Assembly (NCBI GenBank): GCA_016192905.1
Contig: JACPTG010000004.1
Coordinates: 173,734 to 237,733, forward strand
DNA from: Candidatus Woesearchaeota archaeon
Lineage (GTDB): Archaea; Nanobdellota; Nanobdellia; Woesearchaeales; UBA10216
Direction of reading: 5' to 3'
Length of the DNA stretch: 64,000 nt
Shown here: in pieces, positions 3,103-36,074 of the stretch
Layout of the letters: each line of letters starts with the position of its first letter
Numbering within the stretch: the first letter of the stretch is position 1
Notes under the pieces: model-generated
Seen by the model: only the letters and a program-made list of their open reading frames with translations
Told to the model about the DNA's origin: nothing
Databases searched by the model: none
Translations under genes and position numbers: made by a program

Positions 3103-3339
3103 TTCAACCTACCTCCAATACTTCTTTATCCTCACATCTGAAAGGTCAAATGACTCTGAGACTGCACCTGAAGTTACCAGATTCTTCAGGCTATACTTGA
3201 CTGAACGAACAGAAAGGCCGGTAGCCAGAACAATTTCCCTTTGCGTAACTGGACTTGAACCAATAACCCTGAAAACCTTATTGCAAGACCTAGAAGACGA
3301 GTTGCCTATGACAAAGGTAATCGCCTTTTGACATAAAAA

Positions 3340-6090: not shown

Positions 6091-6787
6091 TTTTGCCTGC
6101 CAGTTCCATAATCCTTTTTCCAAAGCCAATCAGTGCAGGCCTTGCAAACCTGTTATAGCGAAGCATGTCCAAAAACAGCTGGTAAGAGTCACTCTCAACC
6201 CTCTCCTTAATGCCTGCCATGAGTTCAGAATTCATGGTTTTTATCTCCGGCGCGCCAGAAGGAAACGACCGGCCAATTGCATGGATAAGAGCAAGCGAAA
6301 AGGCAGCCTGCCGGTCATGCTCCTCAGGCGTGGTTTCCATTACCCTGAGCCCGAGCCCGGCCATGAAATCCTTAACCTTCTTAAGCCTTGCCTGGCTTAT
6401 CCTTACAGGGCATAAAACTATTCTCCTGCTCCCAGGCCTGCTGTAGCTGTCAGGCCCGAACAATGGGTGAGTGGAAATCAAATCAGCCTGAGGCAGCCCC
6501 TTGCGCAATACACCAGCAGGATATTCCTTTACAGAGCACACGTCCATAACAAGGGCTCCTTTCCTGACATGGGGCCTTATCTGCCTGACAGCATCCTCAA
6601 GAGAGGATGCGTGGACACACAGCAATACGATGTCAGACGCTGCTGCTTCCTCTAATGTGGCTGTGCATTCTTCACGCTTCAAGTCATAGACTAATGTCCT
6701 GAAGTGCCGGCTCAGCAGCCTTTCAGCCAGCCTTCCAAACCTTCCACGCCCGATTATTCCAAGGCTTTTCTTAGCTGCCTTAACCAT
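6083..6787 (-). CDS. tyrA: prephenate dehydrogenase
   Basis: 234 aa. N-terminal Rossmann motif (LGIIGRGRFG); STHPLFGP; PDH domain. Confidence 0.82.
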   Translation of the reverse strand: MVKAAKKSLGIIGRGRFGRLAERLLSRHFRTLVYDLKREECTATLEEAAASDIVLLCVHASSLEDAVRQIRPHVRKGALVMDVCSVKEYPAGVLRKGLPQADLISTHPLFGPDSYSRPGSRRIVLCPVRISQARLKKVKDFMAGLGLRVMETTPEEHDRQAAFSLALIHAIGRSFPSGAPEIKTMNSELMAGIKERVESDSYQLFLDMLRYNRFARPALIGFGKRIMELAGKNG

Positions 6788-7835
6788 ACGCCCTCTGCCT
6801 GAGAAGATGGTCTACCAGAACAAGGGCAACCATTGCCTCAACCACAGGAACCGCCCTTGGACAGAGGCACGGGTCAAACCTTCCCTCTGCCTTCAGCTTT
6901 TCCTCCCTTCCTGCCCTGCTTATTGTCTGCTGCTCCTTAGCTATTGATGAAGTGGGCTTTACTGCGGCCCTTACGATTATGTCCTGGCCGCTTGAAATCC
7001 CTCCAAGAATCCCTCCTGCGTGGTTTGTGGAGAATCCTGATTTTTTTATCGCATCGTTTGCCTCTGAGCCCTTCATCTCAGCAAGCCTGAACCCGTCACC
7101 AATCTCAATACCCTTAACCGCGCCTATGCTCATAACTGCCTTTGCAAGGTCTGCACTCAGCTTGTCAAAGGTCGGCTCGCCAAGGCCTGCGGGAACTCCT
7201 TTTGCAACAACCTCAACTATGCCTCCGACTGAATCGCCTTCTGCTTTTGCAGCCAGAATAAGCTTTTCCATCTCCAACGCCTTTTTCCTGTGGGCAGCCC
7301 TTACAGGGTTCTTCTCTGTCTCGCTGTAGTCTATCTCGCTGTCCTCCAGCCTTATCCTGCCCACCTGCCTTGTGAAACCAATAACACTTATACCTTCCTT
7401 TTCCAGGACTTTCTTTGCGATTGCAGCTGCCGCCACGCGGCCTACCTGCTCCCTTGCCGAGCTCCTTCCGCCACCCCTCCAGTCCCTTATGCCATATTTC
7501 TTTTCGTAAGTGTAGTCAGCGTGCCCTGGCCTGTACAGCTCCCTGAACTTCTCGTATTTGGCCGAGTCTATATCCTCATTCATCACCATTATGGATATAG
7601 GGGCTCCTGTAGTACGGCCTTCGAAAACTCCTGACATTATAATGGCCTTGTCCGCCTCTTTCCTTGGAGTCGTGACTGCACTCTGGCCAGGCCTTCTCCT
7701 GTCAAGGTCTTTCTGAATGTCCTCTTCACTTACTTCCAAGTTTGGCGGGCAGCCATCTATGACAACACCCACGCCTTTCCCATGAGACTCGCCCCATGTT
7801 GATATCCTGAACATCCTTCCGAAAGTGCTGGTCAT
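6780..7835 (-). CDS. aroC: chorismate synthase
   Basis: 351 aa. FGRMFRISTWGESHG…GRSSARE… are canonical AroC motifs. Confidence 0.92.
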   Translation of the reverse strand: MTSTFGRMFRISTWGESHGKGVGVVIDGCPPNLEVSEEDIQKDLDRRRPGQSAVTTPRKEADKAIIMSGVFEGRTTGAPISIMVMNEDIDSAKYEKFRELYRPGHADYTYEKKYGIRDWRGGGRSSAREQVGRVAAAAIAKKVLEKEGISVIGFTRQVGRIRLEDSEIDYSETEKNPVRAAHRKKALEMEKLILAAKAEGDSVGGIVEVVAKGVPAGLGEPTFDKLSADLAKAVMSIGAVKGIEIGDGFRLAEMKGSEANDAIKKSGFSTNHAGGILGGISSGQDIIVRAAVKPTSSIAKEQQTISRAGREEKLKAEGRFDPCLCPRAVPVVEAMVALVLVDHLLRQRAYG

Positions 7836-8350
7836 TGTTTCACCCTTGCGTGCTTTAAAAAGCCGAGTATAATCCGCGCAGCCTCCTGAGGGCTTGCTTC
7901 TGAAGTGTCAATAACCACATCCGCAATCCCAAAGTATCTCTTCTCCCTTTTCCTCAAAACCTGCCTTATCTCAGCAACCGCGCCCTTCCCGGTAATGGAC
8001 GGCCTGCCACTGCCAGCTATCCTTGAGGCAATCACTTCACTGTCAGCAGTCAGGAGAATAACCAGATTTTTTTTCCGGTCAAACCTTATCCTGCTTTCTG
8101 TAAATGCGCCGCCTCCGGTCGCAACCACAGCGCGACCTGACCTCAGGGCAGCCCTTACCGCCACTCTTTCCAGAGACCTCAGCCTTTTCCACCCTGATTT
8201 GGCCACCAGCTCAGGAATGGTCATTTTTGCAAGCCTCTCAACCTCATCATCAGTGTCAATGAACCTGGATTTAAGCTTTCTTGAAAGAATTTTCCCAACC
8301 GCAGTCTTGCCAACACCCCGGTATCCTGTAAGAACTATGTTCATCAGCAA
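7832..8350 (-). CDS. aroK: shikimate kinase, bacterial P-loop (AroK/AroL) type
   Basis: 172 aa. Walker A (LTGYRGVGKTAVGKIL), ATGGG, and an AroK-like layout. It is not a GHMP-family kinase. Confidence 0.82.
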   Translation of the reverse strand: MLMNIVLTGYRGVGKTAVGKILSRKLKSRFIDTDDEVERLAKMTIPELVAKSGWKRLRSLERVAVRAALRSGRAVVATGGGAFTESRIRFDRKKNLVILLTADSEVIASRIAGSGRPSITGKGAVAEIRQVLRKREKRYFGIADVVIDTSEASPQEAARIILGFLKHARVKQ

Positions 8351-9612
8351 AGCCTCTCAAGCTCCCTGAAAAAATCCGGGAAAGTCTTTGAAACACACTC
8401 AGCACCCCTAATAACCATGCCCTTCACTGCAAGCCCTGCAATGGCAAAGCTCATGGCCATCCGGTGGTCATTGTAAGTTTCAATGGCAGAACCTTTCAAA
8501 TGGCCTGGTTCTATTTGGAGCCTGTTTTCAGTCTCAGTTACCTTTGCCCCCATCTTTCTCAGTTCTGTTGCCGTTGCCCTAATCCTGTCAGTTTCCTTTA
8601 CTCTAAGGTTGCTTATGTTCATTATACTCGTCCTTCCATTTGCAAAGGCTGCAACGACTGCCAAGGTCTGTGCAGTGTCAGGCATGCTGTTCATGTCAGC
8701 AACTATCCCCTTGAGGCTGCCGCCTTGGACTTCTATCCAGTCCTTGCCTTTCCTTACCCTGCAACCCATCTTTCCAAGCAGGTCAGGGAATTTTGCATCG
8801 CCCTGCACGCTTTTCGGGTTTACCCCTGTTACCTTTACCCTTCCCTTTGTCACTGCGGCTGCAGCGAAAAAGTATGATGCGTTGCTAAAGTCGCCCTCCA
8901 CAAAGTAGTTTCTCGCTGAGTATTTTTGGCCGGATTTCACTGACAACTCCCTGTAGTTCCTGTTGGAGGCCCTAATACCAAATGCCGTCATTGAGTCAAT
9001 CGTCATATCAACGTAGGGCTTTGAAGTCAGGTCTCCTGTAATTTCTATCTGGACATCATTATCAGCGTATGGGGCAACCATGAGCATTGCGCTCAGGTAC
9101 TGGCTGCTTAATGAACCATCTAAATTTGCCTTTCCCCCTTTCAGCCTCCTGCCCCTTACAGTCACAGGCGGAAAACCATGACTCGTCTTTATCTCTGCGC
9201 CAAGCTGCCTCAGCCCCTCCTCCAAGTCGCCTATCGGCCTTTGCCTCATTCTTGCTTCCCCGTCAATAATGGTGCGGCCTTCTGCCAATGTTGCCGCGGC
9301 TGCGATGAACCTTACTGTAGTTCCGGAGTTGCCTGCGAATATGGTTTTCTTAGGAGCCGCCATAGCTTCCGGCTTCCCTTCAACAGCGATTGTCCCACTG
9401 TTCTGGCCTATCAGTGCGGCATTAACCCCAAGCTGTTTCAGGGCGTTTATCATGTGCCTGGTGTCATCGCTGTCAAGGCAGTTGCTCAGCGTTGACCTGC
9501 CATCCGCCAGGGCTGCTATCATTAGTGCCCTGTTTGTGAAGCTCCTTGACCTTGGGCAGCCGATGCTCGCGTTTAGTTCACCTTCACATACAGGCTTCAC
9601 AGAGATTTCCAT
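8344..9612 (-). CDS. aroA: 3-phosphoshikimate 1-carboxyvinyltransferase (EPSP synthase)
   Basis: EPSPS fold repeats present: …LGNSGTTVRF…, …RPIGDLEEGLRQLGA… Start chosen at internal MEISVKPV. Confidence 0.9.
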   Translation of the reverse strand: MEISVKPVCEGELNASIGCPRSRSFTNRALMIAALADGRSTLSNCLDSDDTRHMINALKQLGVNAALIGQNSGTIAVEGKPEAMAAPKKTIFAGNSGTTVRFIAAAATLAEGRTIIDGEARMRQRPIGDLEEGLRQLGAEIKTSHGFPPVTVRGRRLKGGKANLDGSLSSQYLSAMLMVAPYADNDVQIEITGDLTSKPYVDMTIDSMTAFGIRASNRNYRELSVKSGQKYSARNYFVEGDFSNASYFFAAAAVTKGRVKVTGVNPKSVQGDAKFPDLLGKMGCRVRKGKDWIEVQGGSLKGIVADMNSMPDTAQTLAVVAAFANGRTSIMNISNLRVKETDRIRATATELRKMGAKVTETENRLQIEPGHLKGSAIETYNDHRMAMSFAIAGLAVKGMVIRGAECVSKTFPDFFRELERLC

Positions 9613-11054
9613 AAAGATTCCCTCATTATTTCTATCGGAGCTTTTTTGCCGGTCCACAGCTCAAACTGGCCGGTTGCCTGGTGAAGGAGCATTGCGAGGC
9701 CGTCCACTGTCATGCAGCCGGATTCTTTTGCCTCTCTTAACAGCCTTGTTACAGGCGGCTTGTATATAACGTCCATGACGACACCCCTCAACTGCGCTTT
9801 CGGGACAGGGGTTTCGCCATCATTTGGGCTCATTCCAACAGTGGTGCAGTTTATCAGGATGTCGTATTCCATCTTATCCAGGTCGCTTATCGGGCCATAG
9901 CCACACCCAAGCTTTTCCGCAACCTGCCTGGCCCTCTCCACAGTCCTGTTCAGGATGAAAAGCCTGCAGCCTTCCCTTGACAGCTCGAACGCAACTGATT
10001 TTGCAGCCCCTCCAGCGCCGATGATTACTACGACTTTGCCCTTAATGGCGGTCTTTTCCAAAAGCGCCTTCTTCGCGCCCATGCCGTCAGTGTTGTGCCC
10101 AATAAAGATGCCGTCCCTGACTGAAATCGTATTCACAGCGCCAATCTTCCCGGCGTTTTCATCCATGCTGTCAAGATGCCTAATTACCTGCTCCTTGTAG
10201 GGCGTTGTTACAGAAAACCCGGCAGGGTTCAGCTTCCTGATTTCACCAAGGAAAGCAGCCAGATTGTCAACCTCGAATTTCATGTGCACGAAGTTAAGGC
10301 CCAATTTCTCATACACAGGGTTGAACATGAAGAAGCTCCTGCTGTACCTCGCAGGCCTTCCGATAGTGCCAAGAATCCCTGTTTTCCGGTTCAGCCTATC
10401 AGCCCTGTAAACATCCTTCATAAGCGAAAACTGAATCTGCCCTGTAGCAGACTCCATTCCTGAATCAAGGGCGGCATAGGTGAGAAAAGAGCCAAACACC
10501 CTGTAAAGAATCCTGCTAAGCTCGCCCTTCTCCCCCATGCAAACAGCTATGAAAGGCGTTTTCAAATCCTTCACAGACTCAAACATGCGGATATTGTCAA
10601 CTATGTCATTTGCAAAAGTGGCGACCTTGGCAATATCGCAGCCAACGCCTTCCAATTCGGCAAAAATCCTTCTTATTTCCCCTATGTCAGCCGGAGTCTC
10701 TTTTAGGTTATGGAAGGAAACAATCAGCCTGCAGCTTCCCCTGCCGTCCGCCAGCATCTTAATCGAATCCGAGCCGCTGCTAAGCTCCACATCAACATAA
10801 TCTGCGCCAAGGCTTATGGCGTCCTTAAGCAGCGCTATCCTTTCGTCCTCGCTTCCCCTGTAAAAACCGCCCTCCTCCTTTTTCCTGCAAGTCACTATAA
10901 CCTGCTTTTTCCTGGCGCTGAGCAGCCTGCCAAGCCTTGGGCTTTCCATGCAGTCAATCCTGAGCTCAATTATGTCTGCACCCCTTGCCGCCGCTGTTTC
11001 CATACAGTCCAGGGCTTCCTGCTCAGTTTTCGCTGTTATGGGGATGCATATCAT
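9597..11054 (-). CDS. bifunctional 3-dehydroquinate dehydratase (type I) / shikimate dehydrogenase fusion
   Basis: 485 aa. The N-terminal half is type-I DHQase: ICIPITAKT…GADIIELRIDCM. The C-terminal half is SDH: …HNTDGMGAKKAL…VVIIGAGGAAKSVA…. Confidence 0.85.
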   Translation of the reverse strand: MICIPITAKTEQEALDCMETAAARGADIIELRIDCMESPRLGRLLSARKKQVIVTCRKKEEGGFYRGSEDERIALLKDAISLGADYVDVELSSGSDSIKMLADGRGSCRLIVSFHNLKETPADIGEIRRIFAELEGVGCDIAKVATFANDIVDNIRMFESVKDLKTPFIAVCMGEKGELSRILYRVFGSFLTYAALDSGMESATGQIQFSLMKDVYRADRLNRKTGILGTIGRPARYSRSFFMFNPVYEKLGLNFVHMKFEVDNLAAFLGEIRKLNPAGFSVTTPYKEQVIRHLDSMDENAGKIGAVNTISVRDGIFIGHNTDGMGAKKALLEKTAIKGKVVVIIGAGGAAKSVAFELSREGCRLFILNRTVERARQVAEKLGCGYGPISDLDKMEYDILINCTTVGMSPNDGETPVPKAQLRGVVMDVIYKPPVTRLLREAKESGCMTVDGLAMLLHQATGQFELWTGKKAPIEIMRESLWKSL

Positions 11055-21234: not shown

Positions 21235-23652
21235 ATGGCAGAACTAGACCTATTGAATCTGGACTATGAGGACAAATACGGGTTCAGAGACCCTGAAGTC
21301 TACGTCAAAAAACTGCAAAAAGGCCTCTCAGCAGAAGTGGTCCGGGAAATATCAGAAACAAAAGGCGAGCCAGAATGGATGCTCAAATTCCGGCTGAAAG
21401 CGCTTGACATATTTTACAGGAAAAAGATGCCTCAATGGGGCGCAGACCTGTCTGCAATAAACTTTGACGACATCATCTACTACATCAAACCATCTGAGAG
21501 AAAGGCAACAAACTGGGAGGACGTGCCTGAAAAAATCAAGCAGACCTTTGAAAAGCTAGGCATACCCGAGGCTGAGAGAAAATTCCTTGGCGGCTCAGGC
21601 GCGCAGTATGAATCAGAAGTCGTGTACCACAAGCTCAGGGAAGACCTTGAGAAGAAGGGAGTGGTGTTCCTCGACACCGATACCGGCCTGAAGGAGTATG
21701 AAAGCCTGTTCAAGCAGCACTTCGGGACTGTGGTTCCCCCCCACGACAACAAGTTTGCCGCGCTCAACAGCGCAGCATGGAGCGGCGGGAGCTTCATCTA
21801 TGTCCCGAAAAACGTAAAGGTGGACATGCCCCTGCAGGCCTATTTCAGGATAAACGCCCAGAGCATGGGACAGTTTGAAAGGACGCTTATAATGGCAGAT
21901 GAGGGGGCGTCTGTTACATACGTCGAGGCCTGCACAGCCCCCATGTATTCAACCAATTCGCTGCATGCGGCCGTGGTTGAGCTTATCGCAATGAAAAATT
22001 CCAAAATCAGGTACACCACCATACAGAACTGGTCAAGCAATGTGTACAACCTTGTAACAAAAAGGGCATTCGCCTATGAGCATGCATTTGTCGAGTGGAT
22101 TGACGGGAATTTGGGCTGTTTATCCGGCGACGCACAGGTTTTCCTAAACAGTAACCTCAAGCCTATTTCGGAAGTGCAAGCGGGCGATAGCATTTTTGCG
22201 ATGGATGGCTATTTCAATTTAGAAAAGCGAAAGGTTGCCAGCAAAAAATTCAGCGGCAAGCAAAAAATTTTCAAGCTTAAGACACTAAACCACCGTGAAA
22301 TAAAGGCCACTGCAAGCCACCCTTTTCTTATTTTCAGAAAGCTTGGCAAATTCAGCTTTGCTGAATGGACCCCGCTTGATAAGATAAAGATTGGCGACCT
22401 AATCGCCATCTCGGGCCACATCCCCGACTCTGGAGAGCCGTTAAAAATTACGTTTTCAAAAAAAGGCATTAAAGAACTCAAAATCCCCGATGAAACCAAT
22501 GATGATTTGCTATGGCTAATGGGGGTTTACATTGGAGATGGCTATTGCGACAAAAACAGAGTATATTTTGCCGTTCCTGAAACGGACAAGGCCTGCCCCA
22601 AGCTTGTAAGGCTGCTTAAAGAGATTTTCGGAGTTGCCGGGGAAAGGAAGGGGGTCGTCCTTAGAATTGCCTCGGTAGACTTGGTAAGGTTTATCAAGCA
22701 AACTCTTGGGTTCTATGGCACTGCCCAAACCAAACGGATACCTGGCTGGATTTTTACCATTCCAAAATCCCAGCGGCTTGCCCTATTAGACGGATATATA
22801 GCCGCTGATGGATACATCCGCGAAAATCATACAAACATATCCATAACCAGCTCTAACAGGCAGCTTCTTTCCGAAGTGAAAATGCTGGCAATAACCTGCG
22901 GTTTAAACCCGATGAAAATAAGCACATGGACCAGACGGGAGTTAAAGCCCCTTGGCAAGGAAATTAAGGAATATACACACCACTTTCTCTATTTTGGGGA
23001 GGGAAAATTCGAGAAGGACGTTGTTTTCTGTCCAGTTTCAGATATTACCTTCTGCGGCGAAGAGGACACATGGGATATAGAAGTTGAAGACAGCCATAAC
23101 TTTGTCGCAAATGGATTTATTGTTCATAACTCAAATATCACCATGAAGTACCCGAGCGTTTACCTACTCGGAAGAAACGCGAAGGCAGACATACTATCCG
23201 TCGCGTTCGCTGGCAAGGGCCAGCACCAGGATGCTGGCGGAAAGGCGCTTCATTTTGCTCCGGACACCACATCAACAATAATCTCAAAGTCGATAAGCAA
23301 AGGCGGGGGAAGGACCTCATACAGGGGCCTTTTACATGTTGAGAAGGGAGCGACAGGCGTAAAGTCAAACGTGAGATGCGACGCGTTAATACTGGATGAG
23401 GCATCAAGGTCAGACACATATCCGTACATGAAAATCGAGGAGCAGGACACAACCATAACCCATGAGGCGACAGTTGGAAAAATCGGCGAGGACAAGATAT
23501 TCTACCTAATGAGCCGCGGACTGACCGAGCAGCAGGCAATCGCAATGATAGTCCTTGGATTTGTGGAACAGTTCACCAAAGAACTGCCAATGGAATATGC
23601 TGTGGAACTCAACAGGCTGATAAGGCTTGAAATGGCAGGAAGCGTAGGATGA
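21235..23652 (+). CDS. sufB: Fe-S cluster assembly protein SufB, interrupted by an intein
   Basis: N-extein 294 aa (…FVEWIDGNLG) and C-extein (SNITMKYPSVYLLG…EDKIFYLMSRG…) together make ~466 aa of SufB. Confidence 0.9.
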   Translation: MAELDLLNLDYEDKYGFRDPEVYVKKLQKGLSAEVVREISETKGEPEWMLKFRLKALDIFYRKKMPQWGADLSAINFDDIIYYIKPSERKATNWEDVPEKIKQTFEKLGIPEAERKFLGGSGAQYESEVVYHKLREDLEKKGVVFLDTDTGLKEYESLFKQHFGTVVPPHDNKFAALNSAAWSGGSFIYVPKNVKVDMPLQAYFRINAQSMGQFERTLIMADEGASVTYVEACTAPMYSTNSLHAAVVELIAMKNSKIRYTTIQNWSSNVYNLVTKRAFAYEHAFVEWIDGNLGCLSGDAQVFLNSNLKPISEVQAGDSIFAMDGYFNLEKRKVASKKFSGKQKIFKLKTLNHREIKATASHPFLIFRKLGKFSFAEWTPLDKIKIGDLIAISGHIPDSGEPLKITFSKKGIKELKIPDETNDDLLWLMGVYIGDGYCDKNRVYFAVPETDKACPKLVRLLKEIFGVAGERKGVVLRIASVDLVRFIKQTLGFYGTAQTKRIPGWIFTIPKSQRLALLDGYIAADGYIRENHTNISITSSNRQLLSEVKMLAITCGLNPMKISTWTRRELKPLGKEIKEYTHHFLYFGEGKFEKDVVFCPVSDITFCGEEDTWDIEVEDSHNFVANGFIVHNSNITMKYPSVYLLGRNAKADILSVAFAGKGQHQDAGGKALHFAPDTTSTIISKSISKGGGRTSYRGLLHVEKGATGVKSNVRCDALILDEASRSDTYPYMKIEEQDTTITHEATVGKIGEDKIFYLMSRGLTEQQAIAMIVLGFVEQFTKELPMEYAVELNRLIRLEMAGSVG
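22117..23130 (+). mobile_element. SufB intein with LAGLIDADG homing-endonuclease domain (338 aa)
   Basis: Starts CLSGDAQVFL (block A). LAGLIDADG blocks LLWLMGVYIGDGYC and LALLDGYIAADGYI. Ends …VANGFIVHN followed by extein +1 Ser. Confidence 0.85.
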
Positions 23653-30786: not shown

Positions 30787-31410
30787 TTACGCATGCGCCC
30801 GCTTGATGTGCTTGAGCCTTGCGAAGTTCTCCCTCTCCATCTCCTCAAGCCTGAGCCTTACGTAGGAAGCTGATGCCTCAAGCCTTGGAATGGTGATTTT
30901 CTCAAGCGCATTAACCTTCCTCTTGGTCTTCTCAATCTCCTGCAGCAGCCTCCTCAATGCGGTTTCGTGCTCTGCCGCCTCCAGAACCTTCTCAACAAGC
31001 TTCTCGTAGGCAAGCGCTGCCTCGTCAATCTTAATAGAGCCGGAAAGGTAGCCAAAGCCCCTGGTGAAAATGCGCTTCTGCACAGCGCCCTTCTTTATGC
31101 TGGGCACCAGAACGCCCATCACGTTCTTGGCCTCAAGCTGGATAACCGGCTTGTCCTTAACAGCCAGCGCTACAGACTTAACAGCCAAATCAGAGTCAAG
31201 CGCCCTGGTGATATTCATCTTCCCAAGCGCATGCCTGTACTCCTCCACAAGCTCAGAGCGAACATTCCTGGCCTTTTCAAGTGCCTTGAAGAACTCAATA
31301 ATAAGGCCGTCACGCTTCTTCTTAAGCATGCTATGGCCAGACCTTGCCAGCTTAATCTTCTTCCTGAGAAGAAGCAGCTCGCTTCTATTTGGAGTTACGT
31401 TCTGGGACAT
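30787..31410 (-). CDS. atpD: A1AO (V-type) ATP synthase subunit D
   Basis: 207 aa. Coiled-coil subunit with the pattern typical of subunit D (…[25 protein letters not shown]…). Confidence 0.9.
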
Positions 31411-34357
31411 TCTTGTAGTACTTCTTCCTCAGCTCAGGGCTTATCCTGACAAGCTCAGCCTCAGGCAGGGCTCCCAAAAGAGCCCAAGCAACCCTAAGCG
31501 TATCCTCCTGGACAGACCTGTTCTCATTCCTGGCCTGCCTGACGAACACGTCCTCAAAGGAGGCTGCGAACTTCAAAAGGCGGCGGTCCCTCTCAGCAAG
31601 CGACTCCTCGCCGACAATAGCAGCCAGGCCCCTGAGGTCGCGGCCCTCAGCATAGGCTGCGTACAGCTGGTCTGAAACCTGCTTGTGGTCCTCCCTTGTC
31701 TTGCCCTGGCCGATGCCAAGGTTCATCAGCCTTGACAGGGATGGCAAAACATCAATCGGAGGGTAAATGTTCTTCCGGTGAAGCTCCCTGCTCAGGACAA
31801 TCTGGCCCTCGGTAATGTACCCTGTCAGGTCAGGAATCGGATGGGTGATGTCATCACCAATCATGGTCAAAATCGGAATCTGCGTAACAGAGCCCTTCTT
31901 TCCCTTGACAATCCCGGCCCGTTCATACAGCGAAGCGAGGTCAGTGTACATATAGCCGGGGTAGCCCCTCCTCCCGGGAATCTCCTCCCTGGCCGCGCCA
32001 ATCTCACGAAGTGATTCACAATTTGATATTATTAAGCCATTTCCAACCAAGAATTTTCCTGTTTCTGGAATGGTGACATCAAAAACAAACAAGTCTTTTG
32101 GTTCAGTTACTTTAATGTCTGTGATTTCGTCCAAAATGAATTCATCATTTGCATGTTTCTTTAACTCTTTCAGGATTTCATCATTTTCTGCAACGAGTTG
32201 AGAGAACTTTTCCATGCATTTTACAAGTTGCACTTTACTAATTCTCTTAAAGCCCCGTTCAACTTCAGACAACTGGCCGTTACTGGAAATTTGAGTTTGT
32301 TTTATTCCATATTTATGCCTCAATGCCCTTATTAATGTTCCGCAAACTCTCGGCGCATATTCAAATTCAGCGCTCTCTAAAGCATTATCCTTTACCTTCT
32401 CTAATTTATGTCTTTTATGCGGGTGTGATGCGCCAACTTTTTCAACAAACAAGTTAACATACCTTTTGCCTCTTATGATTATGTCAAACACATTACTCTC
32501 TCCATAAGTGCCTGTAGAGTGCCTATCAACAATGATAGAAGCTATTCCAAGTCTCCTTAAAAGCTGTTGGAGCCTTTTGATAACTTTTTCATTCACAGAA
32601 GTATATTGAATGACCCTTCTATTGACAATGCAGCTGCCATCGCCATCAAAGTAGCCTCTCAAAAATGCAGAAATCAAGTTTTCAGGCAATGAGAACAATT
32701 TCTTAAATTCCTTATCTTTCAAACCAAAGAAAGTTGCTATGTCGCAGTAAGCCTTATTATTAATTCTGCATATACTTACTCCATCTTGACTCTTGAAATC
32801 TGTAATCTGGATGTTGGGGAAAATTGTTGTAATCTTTTTCTTGTATATTTTTCTCAAATCAGAACTTGTATTTGAGAAATCCACGCGATAGATGTGGCTA
32901 TTCTCATTTCTTATCAATGAGCCATCAGAAGCAACTAGCCCTAGCAAGTAAAGTAAGTCGTCGTTTGCGTATGCCGTCGCTATTTTCAATCTATTGCCGC
33001 CAACATGCGATATGGCTGAAATTGCCTTCTCTATTGGCAACTCAGGACATATTTTAATCAATGCTCGAATCTCTTTAACATTCAAGAAACTTTCAGAATC
33101 TGTTAGCCTTGAATAATTAATGCCCGATTCTTTACATGCTTCCTTCAGTGAACCATACAGTTTTTTCAGTTTTTGTTTGCTGGTTTCCCTGACTAACTTA
33201 TCAAAGAAAACAATTGTGTTTTCATTTAATGCATCTATTATGGAAGGAATAGCCGTATTCACATTTATTTTTGATGTAATTGCGACTCTATCACCTTTCT
33301 TTAATTGGCCTGCAGGCGCCATTCTTAGTCCAAGAATCGTGTCTGTCAGTATCCTATGATTTGGCGTCAAGGTTAATTTGTTTCCTGAGCGAGTTGATAG
33401 TTCTATCATTTGCATTGAAGCTGGAAGCTTTTGAACTCGGGCAATCTGTTTAATGGCATCATTATTACCGTCCCATGTTAGCGCTTTTTCTTCCTTATCC
33501 CTAATATCAACATCAGAACCTCTTGTTTGACTTTCAACAAATTCTTTAATTGTTGTTATTCTTCCATCACCTAAAAACATCTCAGTTTCTCCAGCGACGC
33601 AGTAGTTCGTCATATCAGTCAATATTACCAGCACATGCATGTCCTTCTCATACGCAAAATACTCTGCTGCTGTAAGCGCCATTCTTGGAGTTATAAGCCT
33701 CTCCACAGCAGGGTCATCTGCCAGGTTGAGGAATACGAGAGACCTCTTAAGCGCGCCAGTGTTCTCGAAATCAGTAATAAAGCGCTGCGCTTCCTCATTG
33801 GTAATGCCCATTGCGGCAAAGATGACGACAAAGCCAGCCTCTTTGCCCAGAACCCTTGCCTGCCTTGCAATCTGAAGGGCAATGTCGTTGTGCGGCAGGC
33901 CAGAGCCTGAGAAAACAGGCAGCTTCTGCCCCCTGACAAGCGTATTCATCAGGTCAATGGTTGAAATACCTGTCTGGATGAAGTCCTCAGGGCCTGCCCT
34001 GGCCACCGGGTTAATGGCAGCCCCGGTAATGTCAAGCTTATCCTCAGGAATAATTTCAGGGCCGTTGTCAATGGGCTTTCCAGCGCCGCTAAGAATCCTT
34101 CCAAGCATGTCCGGGGAAACAGGCAGCCTGATGTTTTCGCCAAGGAACCTTACGCGGGCATCCCTGTCCAGGCCAGAAGTGCCCTCGAAAACCTGGACTA
34201 CGACTATATCATCACTTGTATCAAGAACCTGGCCTGTCTTTAATTCACCTGAAGGCGTGGCAATCCTTACCAGGTCATTATAGCCAACAGGGTCTGTCTT
34301 CCTTACAAAGACAAGCGGGCCTGCAATCCGTGAAACAGTCTTATACTCCTTTTCCAT
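31385..34357 (-). CDS. atpB: A1AO (V-type) ATP synthase subunit B, interrupted by an intein
   Basis: The N-extein ends …ILTDMTNY. The C-extein begins [36 protein letters not shown]. The exteins sum to ~464 aa. Start taken at MEKEYKTV. Confidence 0.9.
32021..33601 (-). mobile_element. intein in ATP synthase subunit B with LAGLIDADG endonuclease domain (527 aa)
   Basis: Starts [22 protein letters not shown] blocks [14 protein letters not shown] and [11 protein letters not shown]. Ends [11 protein letters not shown] with +1 Cys. In frame. Confidence 0.85.
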
Positions 34358-36074
34358 CCCTAAACTCCCTCTCCATGTCAGCCACAATCCCCTTGAGGAA
34401 TGGCTCGTAATCCTTCTCAAACTTCACATCGCCAATCCTGTCCTTTGCCTTAATCTCCAGAATCCTCTGCGCCTTCCCGCCTGATTCAAGGGCAGCGTAC
34501 GCAAGGTCAGCATACTTCAGGACAGTCTTCATTATGAGATAGGTTTTCTTAGGCTGCGAATACGTGTCAACAGGGTGGAATGCGTTCTGCTGCAGCAGGA
34601 ACTCACGGGCCATCCTCGCTATCCTCAGCGTAATCCGCTCACGCTCAGGCAGGGCATCAGAGCCAATAAGCTGGACAATCTCAAGCAGCCTGTCCTCCTC
34701 CTGAAGCACGGCCATAAGCCTGTCAACACAATTTCTCCAATCAGCAGCAACGTTCTTCGCAAACCAGGGCTCAAGGATGTCTGCGTACAGCGAGTAGGAA
34801 GTAAGCCAGTTTATTGAAGGGAAATGCCTGCGCTGGGAGAGCTTTGCATCCAAAGCCCAGAATACCTTAACAACCCTAAGGGTGCTTTGAGTTACAGGTT
34901 CTGAAAAATCCCCGCCTGGCGGCGAAACAGCGCCTATGACAGAAACAGAGCCTTCCTTTCCAGACAGCGCGACAACCCTGCCAGCCCTTTCGTAAAACTC
35001 CGCAAGCCTTGTTGAAAGGTATGAAGGGTAGCCCTCCTCACCAGGCATCTCCTGAAGCCTTGAAGAGATTTCCCTCATGGCCTCAGCCCACCTTGAAGTT
35101 GAGTCAGCCATAAGGGCAACGCTATAACCCATGTCCCTGTAATACTCAGCGATTGTAACTCCTGTGTAAATTGAAGCCTCCCTGGCGGCAACAGGCATGT
35201 TTGAAGTGTTCGCGATAAGCACAGTCCTGTTCATAAGCGGCTTATCAGTCCGCGGGTCAACCAGCTTAGGGAACTCCTCCAAGACCTCAGTCATCTCATT
35301 GCCCCGCTCGCCGCAGCCTACATAGACTACGACTTCTGCATCGGCCCACTTGGCCAAGGCCTGCTGAGTCACCGTTTTTCCCGACCCGAATGGCCCCGGG
35401 ATAGCAGCCACTCCTCCCTTGGAAAGCGGAAACAGCGCATCAAAAACCCTCTGGCCGGTAATCAGGGGAAGGTTGGGAATAAGCTTTTTAGAGGAAGGCC
35501 TGGGTCTCCTCACAGGCCACTGCTGCATAAGCGTAATTTTCGCGCCATTCTCCAAAGTGCAAACCTCGTCCTCAACGGTGAACGAGCCCTCTCTGATATC
35601 CTTCGCCTTTCCTGCGGAAATGTCTGCAGGGGCAGGGAACCTGTGTTCTGTGTTAAGCTCCTGGACAGTCCCGATAATCATTCCCGGAGAAACCAAATCG
35701 CCTTTTTTTACAGCAGGCTTAAACTCCCACTTCTTCCTGCGGTCCAAGCCAGGGGCAGTGATGCCGCGGGATATGAAATCTCCACGCTGCCTCCTAAGCT
35801 CTGCAAGCGGCCTCTGGATGCCATCATAAACAGAGTTAAGAAGCCCGGGGCCAAGCTCAACAGAAAGCGGAAGGCCTGTAGTCTCAACAACCTCGCCAGG
35901 CTTCAGGCCTGAAGTGTCCTCATAAACCTGGATTGTCGTGCGGTCATCATTAATCTGGATAACCTCACCCATAAGCTTCTCCCTGCCCACGCGAACAACG
36001 TCGTACATCCTGGCGCTGAGCCCCTTCGCAACGACCACAGGGCCTGAAATCTGGTAAAGCCTTGCCATTTTCAA
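34341..36074 (-). CDS. atpA: A1AO (V-type) ATP synthase catalytic subunit A (no intein)
   Basis: 577 aa. GPFGSGKT Walker A; …[22 protein letters not shown]…. Confidence 0.92.

Follow-up and report, generated by a model that had tools for sequence, protein, structure and literature searches.

The founding ATPase intein, PI-SceI of the yeast VMA1 gene, occupies site 'a' of the A subunit, at a G|C junction. Two insertion sites have been published for ATPase inteins and both lie in this catalytic subunit, site 'a' between G260 and C261 and site 'b' between K240 and T241 in the P-loop (PMC2814812). Likewise, in the survey of Novikova et al., subunit A is the only ATPase subunit named among the common archaeal intein hosts (PMC4760082). 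We report here on a stretch of 64,000 nucleotides (the window) from a genome labelled Candidatus Woesearchaeota archaeon (GCA_016192905.1, contig JACPTG010000004.1), in which the atpB gene, encoding the non-catalytic B subunit of an A/V-type ATP synthase, is interrupted by an insert of 527 codons. We identify this insert as a class-1-type intein equipped with a LAGLIDADG homing endonuclease of the two-motif kind; it very probably represents a mobile, self-splicing element carrying its own homing endonuclease, lodged between Tyr252 and Cys253 of the B subunit of this DPANN archaeon. A preliminary description, made from the window sequence, had placed a LAGLIDADG intein at a distinct homing site in subunit B and had noted that the well-known ATPase inteins sit in subunit A, which agrees with the published sites.

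The interrupted atpB gene and its insertion site

The atpB precursor gene lies on the minus strand within an open reading frame spanning positions 31385..34420; translation from the ATG at 34357 yields a product of 990 residues plus stop (31385..34357; MEKEYK...ERNSK) identical to the NCBI protein MBI3052306.1, which is recorded as 'V-type ATP synthase subunit B [Candidatus Woesearchaeota archaeon]' and originates from a metagenome-assembled contig of 283,780 nt. The N-extein (residues 1-252; 33602..34357, minus strand) ends with ...VILTDMTNY in a Walker-B-like strand of the nucleotide-binding domain. It is followed by the 527-residue intein running from Cys1 to Asn527 (precursor residues 253-779; 32021..33601, minus strand), delimited by Pfam, composition, structural model and fold matches, and by a C-extein of 211 residues opening with Cys+1 (precursor residues 780-990; 31388..32020, minus strand; stop codon at 31385-31387). 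The intein begins with CVAGETEMF, ends with GNGLIISN immediately before Cys+1, and is in frame with both exteins. All the junction sequences quoted in the preliminary description were thus recovered, on the minus strand, which it had left unstated; its estimate of about 464 residues for the reassembled exteins needs a slight correction, as their exact sum is 463.

Pfam detects the ATP-synt_ab domain in two pieces, with the Intein_splicing (E 3.7e-14) and LAGLIDADG_3 (E 1.9e-18) domains nested between them, the Intein_splicing match taking in both ends of the insert. When the exteins are joined, residues 1-454 align with subunit B of Methanosarcina mazei (PDB 2c61; E 3.7e-221) and the junction is bridged without gaps. 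This bears out the earlier assignment of the host to the non-catalytic subunit, and the joined site matches the consensus of 120 intein-free relatives. The insert interrupts the nucleotide-binding domain in its core, right behind a beta-strand, where none of the solved B subunits shows a gap. A Cys residue is found at the +1 position (DMTNY|CESLREIGA) in 115 of the 119 closest intein-free B subunits that have the site motif. The +1 nucleophile is therefore a native residue of the host protein and splicing would leave no scar.

The homing site DMTNY|C lies directly behind the Walker-B-like strand. Its equivalent in the paralogous A subunit, DSTSRW|AEA, corresponds neither to site 'a' nor to site 'b' (PMC2814812), so that the proposal of a distinct homing site holds. 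The element is consequently not an allele of vma-1a or vma-1b: its host is subunit B, and both A-subunit sites are empty in the window. No description of a B-subunit intein was found in the searchable literature, a search to which the intein databases InBase and InterPro were external. The B site is rare, and undescribed as far as the search reached, yet it is occupied, unannotated, in public genomes of two domains.

Architecture and catalytic residues of the intein

The intein has a modular organization whose domain limits are approximate, all modules being encoded on the minus strand. First comes the N-terminal Hint part (intein residues 1-118; 33248..33601), which carries Cys1 and block B (T79-P-N-H82) and is delimited by the model. 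A first helical accessory domain (residues 119-205; 32987..33247), recognized from the secondary structure of the model and from the alignment, is conserved across the clade (K..L..KFGS...A...LGI.Y.R) and may provide an additional DNA-contact module. The LAGLIDADG endonuclease core (residues 206-405; 32387..32986) is identified by Pfam LAGLIDADG_3 (E 6e-19), by Foldseek matches to I-DmoI, PI-PfuI and PI-PkoII and by its pattern of selection (see below). As had been noticed earlier, it contains two LAGLIDADG blocks: motif 1 at residues 216-228 (32918..32956; LVASD226G, with the acidic residue D226) and motif 2 at residues 310-323 (32633..32674; YFDGD321G, with the acidic residue D321), of which Y317-G322 is invariant among the aligned copies found at the same site in other genomes. 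The second helical accessory domain (residues 406-486; 32144..32386), defined by alignment and model, looks like a helix-turn-helix (APRVCG.L....R..YGI......), from which a function can be suggested. Finally, the C-terminal part of the Hint domain (residues 487-527; 32021..32143) comprises block F (FVFD508VTIPETG515KF) and block G (GLIIS526N527).

An AlphaFold model of the intein (18 homologues) was obtained with high confidence (pLDDT 92, pTM 0.92). When compared with the PDB using Foldseek, this model retrieved solved inteins at probability 1.00, led by the Thermococcus litoralis VMA intein (7qss, E 8e-22), PI-PkoII (2cw7, E 8e-22) and PI-PfuI (1dq3, E 1e-19), and further matched PhoVMA, PI-SceI and the free-standing endonuclease I-DmoI. 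The alpha-beta-beta-alpha-beta-beta-alpha fold of the endonuclease core is supported by I-DmoI (template-modelling score, TM, 0.7 on the target) and by I-Tsp061I. The residues expected for splicing are present, namely Cys1, T79xxH82, the block F aspartate D508 (F:4), N527 (G:7) and Cys+1; Cys1 and TxxH are kept in 19 of 19 same-site copies, and D508 (within FVFDVT) and Asn527 are invariant in the same-site allele family. Both endonuclease aspartates, D226 and D321, are intact in the window copy, which has neither stop codons nor deletions. The identification of an in-frame, 527-residue LAGLIDADG intein is thus upheld by Pfam, by a confident model matching solved inteins and by the catalytic residues at both junctions. 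From these features, the element would be expected to excise itself autocatalytically with ligation of the exteins, and its endonuclease to cleave the intein-less allele site-specifically.

The C-terminal active site departs from the usual arrangement. According to the review of Mills, Johnson and Perler, two histidines normally assist the cyclization of the terminal Asn, neither of them is a universal requirement, and a residue other than His stands at the penultimate position, G:6, in about 5% of functional inteins (PMC4031507). Neither assisting histidine was found in the window intein, where G:6 is Ser526 and the block F position F:13 is Gly515. Since neither histidine is obligatory (PMC4031507), the window intein is an unusual variant that still qualifies as an intein. 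Ser replaces the penultimate His in 19 of 19 same-site copies. At the block F position, the window copy and its closest relatives (a sub-clade made of the window, L003-L006 and P0010) have Gly515-Lys516 (T-G-K-F), and the His is kept (T-H-N/K-F) in the other 14 copies, which come from bacteria, Micrarchaeia and Iainarchaeum. This sub-clade lacks both histidines, yet is under purifying selection in an essential gene. We can imagine, as a rather doubtful explanation, that its branched intermediate is resolved by a different catalytic arrangement involving Lys516, Ser526 or extein residues, with splicing that is possibly slow or condition-dependent and that would gate ATP synthase assembly.

Among inteins of solved structure, the best match to the window intein is provided by the vma-1b inteins (T. 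litoralis 7qss, Pyrococcus horikoshii 7qst, Thermoplasma 4o1s), both in sequence (7qss, E 9e-8) and in fold (TM 0.63/0.76). Like the window intein, they belong to an A/V-ATPase operon, combine Hint and LAGLIDADG domains and open with CV.G.T. They differ in their host, subunit A, in their K|T site in the P-loop and in their C-terminal end, which is His-Asn followed by Thr+1 whereas the window intein ends in Ser-Asn followed by Cys+1; identity to the window intein is 15-22%. PI-PkoII (537 residues, in a DNA polymerase) and PI-PfuI (in a ribonucleotide reductase) are of similar size and share the overall multi-domain plan, in which a Hint domain and a two-motif LAGLIDADG core are joined by further modules for DNA binding. 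Their hosts and targets are unrelated to those of the window intein, their identity to it is 15-16%, and their accessory helical domains are partly superposable (TM about 0.6-0.67). PI-SceI shares Cys1, Cys+1 and a LAGLIDADG endonuclease with the window intein and differs from it by its eukaryotic catalytic subunit host, its site and a much weaker fold match (E 2e-10, whole-chain root-mean-square deviation about 23 A).

Distribution, relatives and inheritance

The intein is absent from all of the 120 closest B-subunit clusters (79-87% identity, most of them with a Woesearchaeota or Nanoarchaeota label). We then scanned one genome per GTDB species with a pattern derived from an alignment of eight same-site sequences, and intact inteins without stop codons were detected at the same codon in about 19 species-representative genomes. 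The occupied site is therefore uncommon, as had been supposed, while the allele also exists outside this genome. Its archaeal carriers are a sister strain (L003), an uncultured archaeon (L006, CAYRSM010000014.1) whose intein is the closest full-length relative (63% identity), a member of the Diapherotrites (L004, PEXL01000015.1) and L005, both at 51-52% identity, Iainarchaeum (L032) and a member of the Micrarchaeia (L016). Bacterial carriers, with inteins 31-37% identical to that of the window, belong to Armatimonadota, Acetothermia, Rubrobacteraceae, Candidatus Fervidifonticultor, Candidatus Geohabitans, ANGP1 and unclassified bacteria (for instance LDXQ01000011.1, L011, Armatimonadetes CSP1-3, and JBHJHC010000017.1, L012, Rubrobacteraceae). 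The records of these carriers name the protein only 'V-type ATP synthase subunit B'. All share with the window the insertion codon (D[MI]T[NS]Y|C...SN|CE[AS]LRE), the domain order and the full-length architecture; they differ from it in sequence (31-63% identity) and in length, which is 520-532 residues in 18 copies and 569 in L032.

Closer sequences were found as metagenomic fragments, namely P0017, which is 82% identical along the first ~71 residues, and P0010, which is 70% identical in the last quarter. Among 1.84 billion representative proteins searched, only 36 matched at E<=1e-30, and same-site alleles accounted for 3 of the best 148. The exteins of the intein carriers are 68-69% identical to those of the window, versus 79-87% for the intein-free relatives. 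Such patchy carriage outside the closest relatives is the pattern expected of horizontal homing. In neighbour-joining trees of inteins and exteins, built without support values, the Micrarchaeia intein clusters with a bacterial clade, which hints at cross-domain intein transfer and may serve as a lead only. One JGI metagenome protein (P0006, 634 residues) carries a same-site intein with a C-extein lacking about 60 residues right after Cys+1 (SSNC-EGQLVMDREL...); its host gene may be damaged, or the sequence misassembled. Two over-long B-subunit homologues, P0025 (704 residues) and P0089 (588 residues), contain internal tandem duplications of B-subunit segments and no inteins; these duplications are probably assembly artefacts of mixed strains.

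Beyond the same-site alleles, the nearest kin of the window intein are not VMA inteins but a clade of inteins of about 490-540 residues ending in Ser-Asn (occasionally Lys-Asn or Gly-Asn) followed by Cys, located at conserved Cys sites of other enzymes (L019, L021-L029, L031, L033-L035; P0007-P0016, P0145-P0163) and found mostly in DPANN, Hadarchaeota, Caldarchaeum and Bathyarchaeia. As judged from flanking motifs and Pfam, the hosts would include a [NiFe]-hydrogenase large subunit (RICG[IL]|C), NuoB, Cbf5/TruB, an HdrA-like flavoprotein, a radical S-adenosylmethionine enzyme (CxxxCxxC), a thiamine pyrophosphate enzyme and a nitroreductase. These enzymes act in metabolism and RNA modification rather than in replication.

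The catalytic A subunit is encoded next to atpB (34341..36074, minus strand; 577 residues from a TTG, 575 from the likely ATG at 36068). It is uninterrupted: Pfam finds no intein domain in the window A subunit, and the vma-1b P-loop site GSGK|TV is empty between bases 35377 and 35376 of the minus strand. The earlier statement that the A subunit is intein-free is accordingly correct for the window and fails as a lineage trait, because a strain of about 97.5% identity (L002, GCA_964504135.1) has an A subunit of 1081 residues with a 506-residue LAGLIDADG intein at the P-loop (GSGK|CVTGDTL...MILHN|TVSQSQ; locus 6772-10017). The intein-free A subunit is a strain-level polymorphism. Around the empty site of the window (GSGK|TVTQQA, against GSGK|TVSQSQLAKW in L002; ~35345-35390), about 35 nt contain about 17 mismatches to L002 within DNA that is otherwise about 99% identical; this cluster likely represents a co-conversion tract or a homing-resistant (immune) target. 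We considered whether the B intein descends from the neighbouring vma-1b intein of subunit A, as the best PDB matches and the shared CVAGET opening might suggest, and rejected this origin, since the sister A intein is only 22% identical to it (E 2e-13) and much closer matches (E 1e-78 to 1e-40) are provided by dozens of inteins whose host enzymes are unrelated. The top rank of VMA inteins in the PDB reflects which structures happen to be solved.

Selection was assessed by comparing the window with L002, whose DNA shares about 97.5% identity with it along the operon. The whole intein shows a synonymous divergence (dS) of 0.084 and a ratio of non-synonymous to synonymous divergence (dN/dS) of 0.125 (27 synonymous and 13 non-synonymous differences), and the exteins a dS of 0.072 and a dN/dS of 0.053 (23 and 4 differences), so that the host gene is strongly constrained, which lends indirect support to the predicted excision and extein ligation. 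In the Hint parts, 12 synonymous and no non-synonymous differences were counted (10 and none in the N-part), and in the endonuclease core 11 and 10, respectively (dS 0.093; dN/dS 0.23, p=0.001). These low ratios indicate that both splicing and endonuclease activities have been under selection since the strains split. The similar dS of intein and exteins indicates that the insertion predates the split of the two strains and that descent of the intein has been vertical from then on. The sister-strain contig (L002/L003) carries the third-party annotation label 'uncultured Methanosarcinales archaeon'; the closest named B subunits are nearly all from Woesearchaeota or Nanoarchaeota, and the label is probably wrong.

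The base composition of the intein (guanine-plus-cytosine content, GC, 0.364; GC at third codon positions, GC3, 0.33) differs from that of the exteins (GC 0.51 and 0.56, 0.53 overall; GC3 0.55 and 0.67), and the gap is the largest among all the same-site loci compared. This mismatch points to acquisition from a low-GC donor, followed by amelioration that is still incomplete. The window contains a second intein, of 338 residues with a LAGLIDADG domain (22117-23130, plus strand), in a SufB gene (21235-23649). Its junctions are WIDGNLG|CLSGDAQ...NGFIVHN|SNITMKY, with a canonical His-Asn end and Ser at +1, and its GC content is 0.44 compared to 0.50 in the SufB exteins, a gap much smaller than that of the atpB intein.

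A further relative of the atpB locus is the 5877-nt contig L001 from the Logan assembly of SRR12113419. It matches the window at 369 of 369 informative sites upstream (the aligned stretch being 100% identical) and at 41 of 41 within the initial 209 nt of the C-extein, after which it is 98.4% identical to L083, an intein-free Woesearchaeota relative (GCA_016192945.1). The single crossover maps to ~3293-3325 of the contig (window ~31780-31810), in a 33-nt stretch common to both parents. The Logan assembler uses a k-mer size of 31, about the length of this stretch. L001 is thus either a real recombinant, in which the intein was entering another species, or a k-mer-sized assembly chimera. Given the second possibility, we did not use it as evidence of a homing event caught in the act.

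Proposed homing cycle, alternative explanations and significance

In the scenario that we favour, the 990-residue precursor would be translated and the Hint domain would then remove itself: Cys1 would undergo an N-to-S acyl shift, the resulting thioester would be passed to Cys+1, cyclization of Asn527 would free the intein, and a final S-to-N shift would leave a native Tyr-Cys bond in a B subunit of 463 residues. The free intein would cut intein-less atpB at ...GATATGACNAAYTAY|TGYGAR..., and the element would spread when the break is repaired with the intein-bearing copy as template. The 60-bp intein-less target could be reconstructed as CTGGTAATATTGACTGATATGACGAACTAC|TGTGAATCACTTCGTGAGATTGGCGCGGCC; the natural empty allele L083 shares 45 of these 60 nt.

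Several points weigh against this scenario. With Gly515 and Ser526 in place of both assisting histidines, the third step, Asn cyclization, may be slow or reliant on other residues. The intein appears from the strain comparison to have been inherited vertically since the split, and recent homing is not demonstrated; L001, the only possible trace of a recent transfer, could be an assembly chimera. The view covers 64 kb, and a second, intein-free atpB copy may exist elsewhere in the genome. Splicing and DNA cleavage are themselves deduced from sequence. It is conceivable, and in our opinion unlikely, that the intein splices with an inactive endonuclease, as a fixed resident late in the homing cycle that is kept because imprecise loss would kill an essential gene. 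In its favour, the 13 amino-acid changes that separate the window intein from that of the sister strain are all located within intein residues 159-404, the Hint parts being free of them, no clear-cut case of recent homing is on record, the similar dS values speak for vertical inheritance, and decay does occur in the allele family, the first catalytic Asp being replaced by Gly in L009/P0002 and the second by Asn in L013. However, both catalytic Asp residues are intact in the window copy, dN/dS in the core is significantly below 1, there are no stops or deletions, and the full-length architecture is preserved in all of the about 19 same-site copies.

That the intein has been co-opted as a regulator, with conditional splicing (through redox-sensitive Cys1 and Cys+1 or slow cyclization lacking the histidines) gating ATP synthase assembly, appears very improbable. 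The conservation of the unusual Gly515 and Ser526 in the sub-clade, the Cys residues at both junctions and the purifying selection on the intein are circumstantial indications of such a role, but the closest relatives do well without an intein and the patchy distribution fits a selfish element. We attach still less credence to a lineage-specific B-subunit domain retained in the mature protein, or to a gene that is a disrupted pseudogene. The absence of the two assisting histidines would fit these explanations, as would the fact that splicing is predicted here from sequence; the insert, however, has all four blocks A, B, F and G (Cys1, TxxH, Asp, Asn and Cys+1), which rules out a B-subunit domain devoid of them, an outcome that the preliminary description had named as contradicting it. 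Moreover, its fold matches solved inteins, it breaks the nucleotide-binding core at a position that is gapless in solved B subunits, and related elements occupy unrelated conserved Cys sites in other enzymes, as mobile inteins behave, while the low extein dN/dS argues against a pseudogene. An artefact of metagenome assembly or binning, by which a low-GC fragment was joined into atpB, might account for the sharp drop in GC at both junctions, and the related contig L001 looks mosaic. The chance of such an artefact is practically negligible: the precursor is found at 90% identity or more in GCA_964504135.1 (L002/L003) and in L001, the same in-frame junctions recur in these and in the window (MBI3052306.1), that is, in three independent assemblies of different origin, which excludes an assembly error, the identical codon is occupied in about 19 other genomes, and the reading frame and splice residues are exact.

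The atpB intein, very probably mobile and self-splicing, adds a third, non-paralogous intein insertion point in the A/V-ATPase head, and the first that we document in its non-catalytic subunit, and leaves unchanged what inteins are understood to be. Its C-terminal active site lacking both histidines is a candidate for mechanistic work and intein engineering, and the near-identical strains that differ in their A-subunit intein offer a natural system for the study of the homing cycle. The identical-codon allele is present in DPANN archaea and in several bacterial phyla with V/A-type ATPases and, being shared across domains at the same codon, is usable as a marker of cross-domain gene flow.

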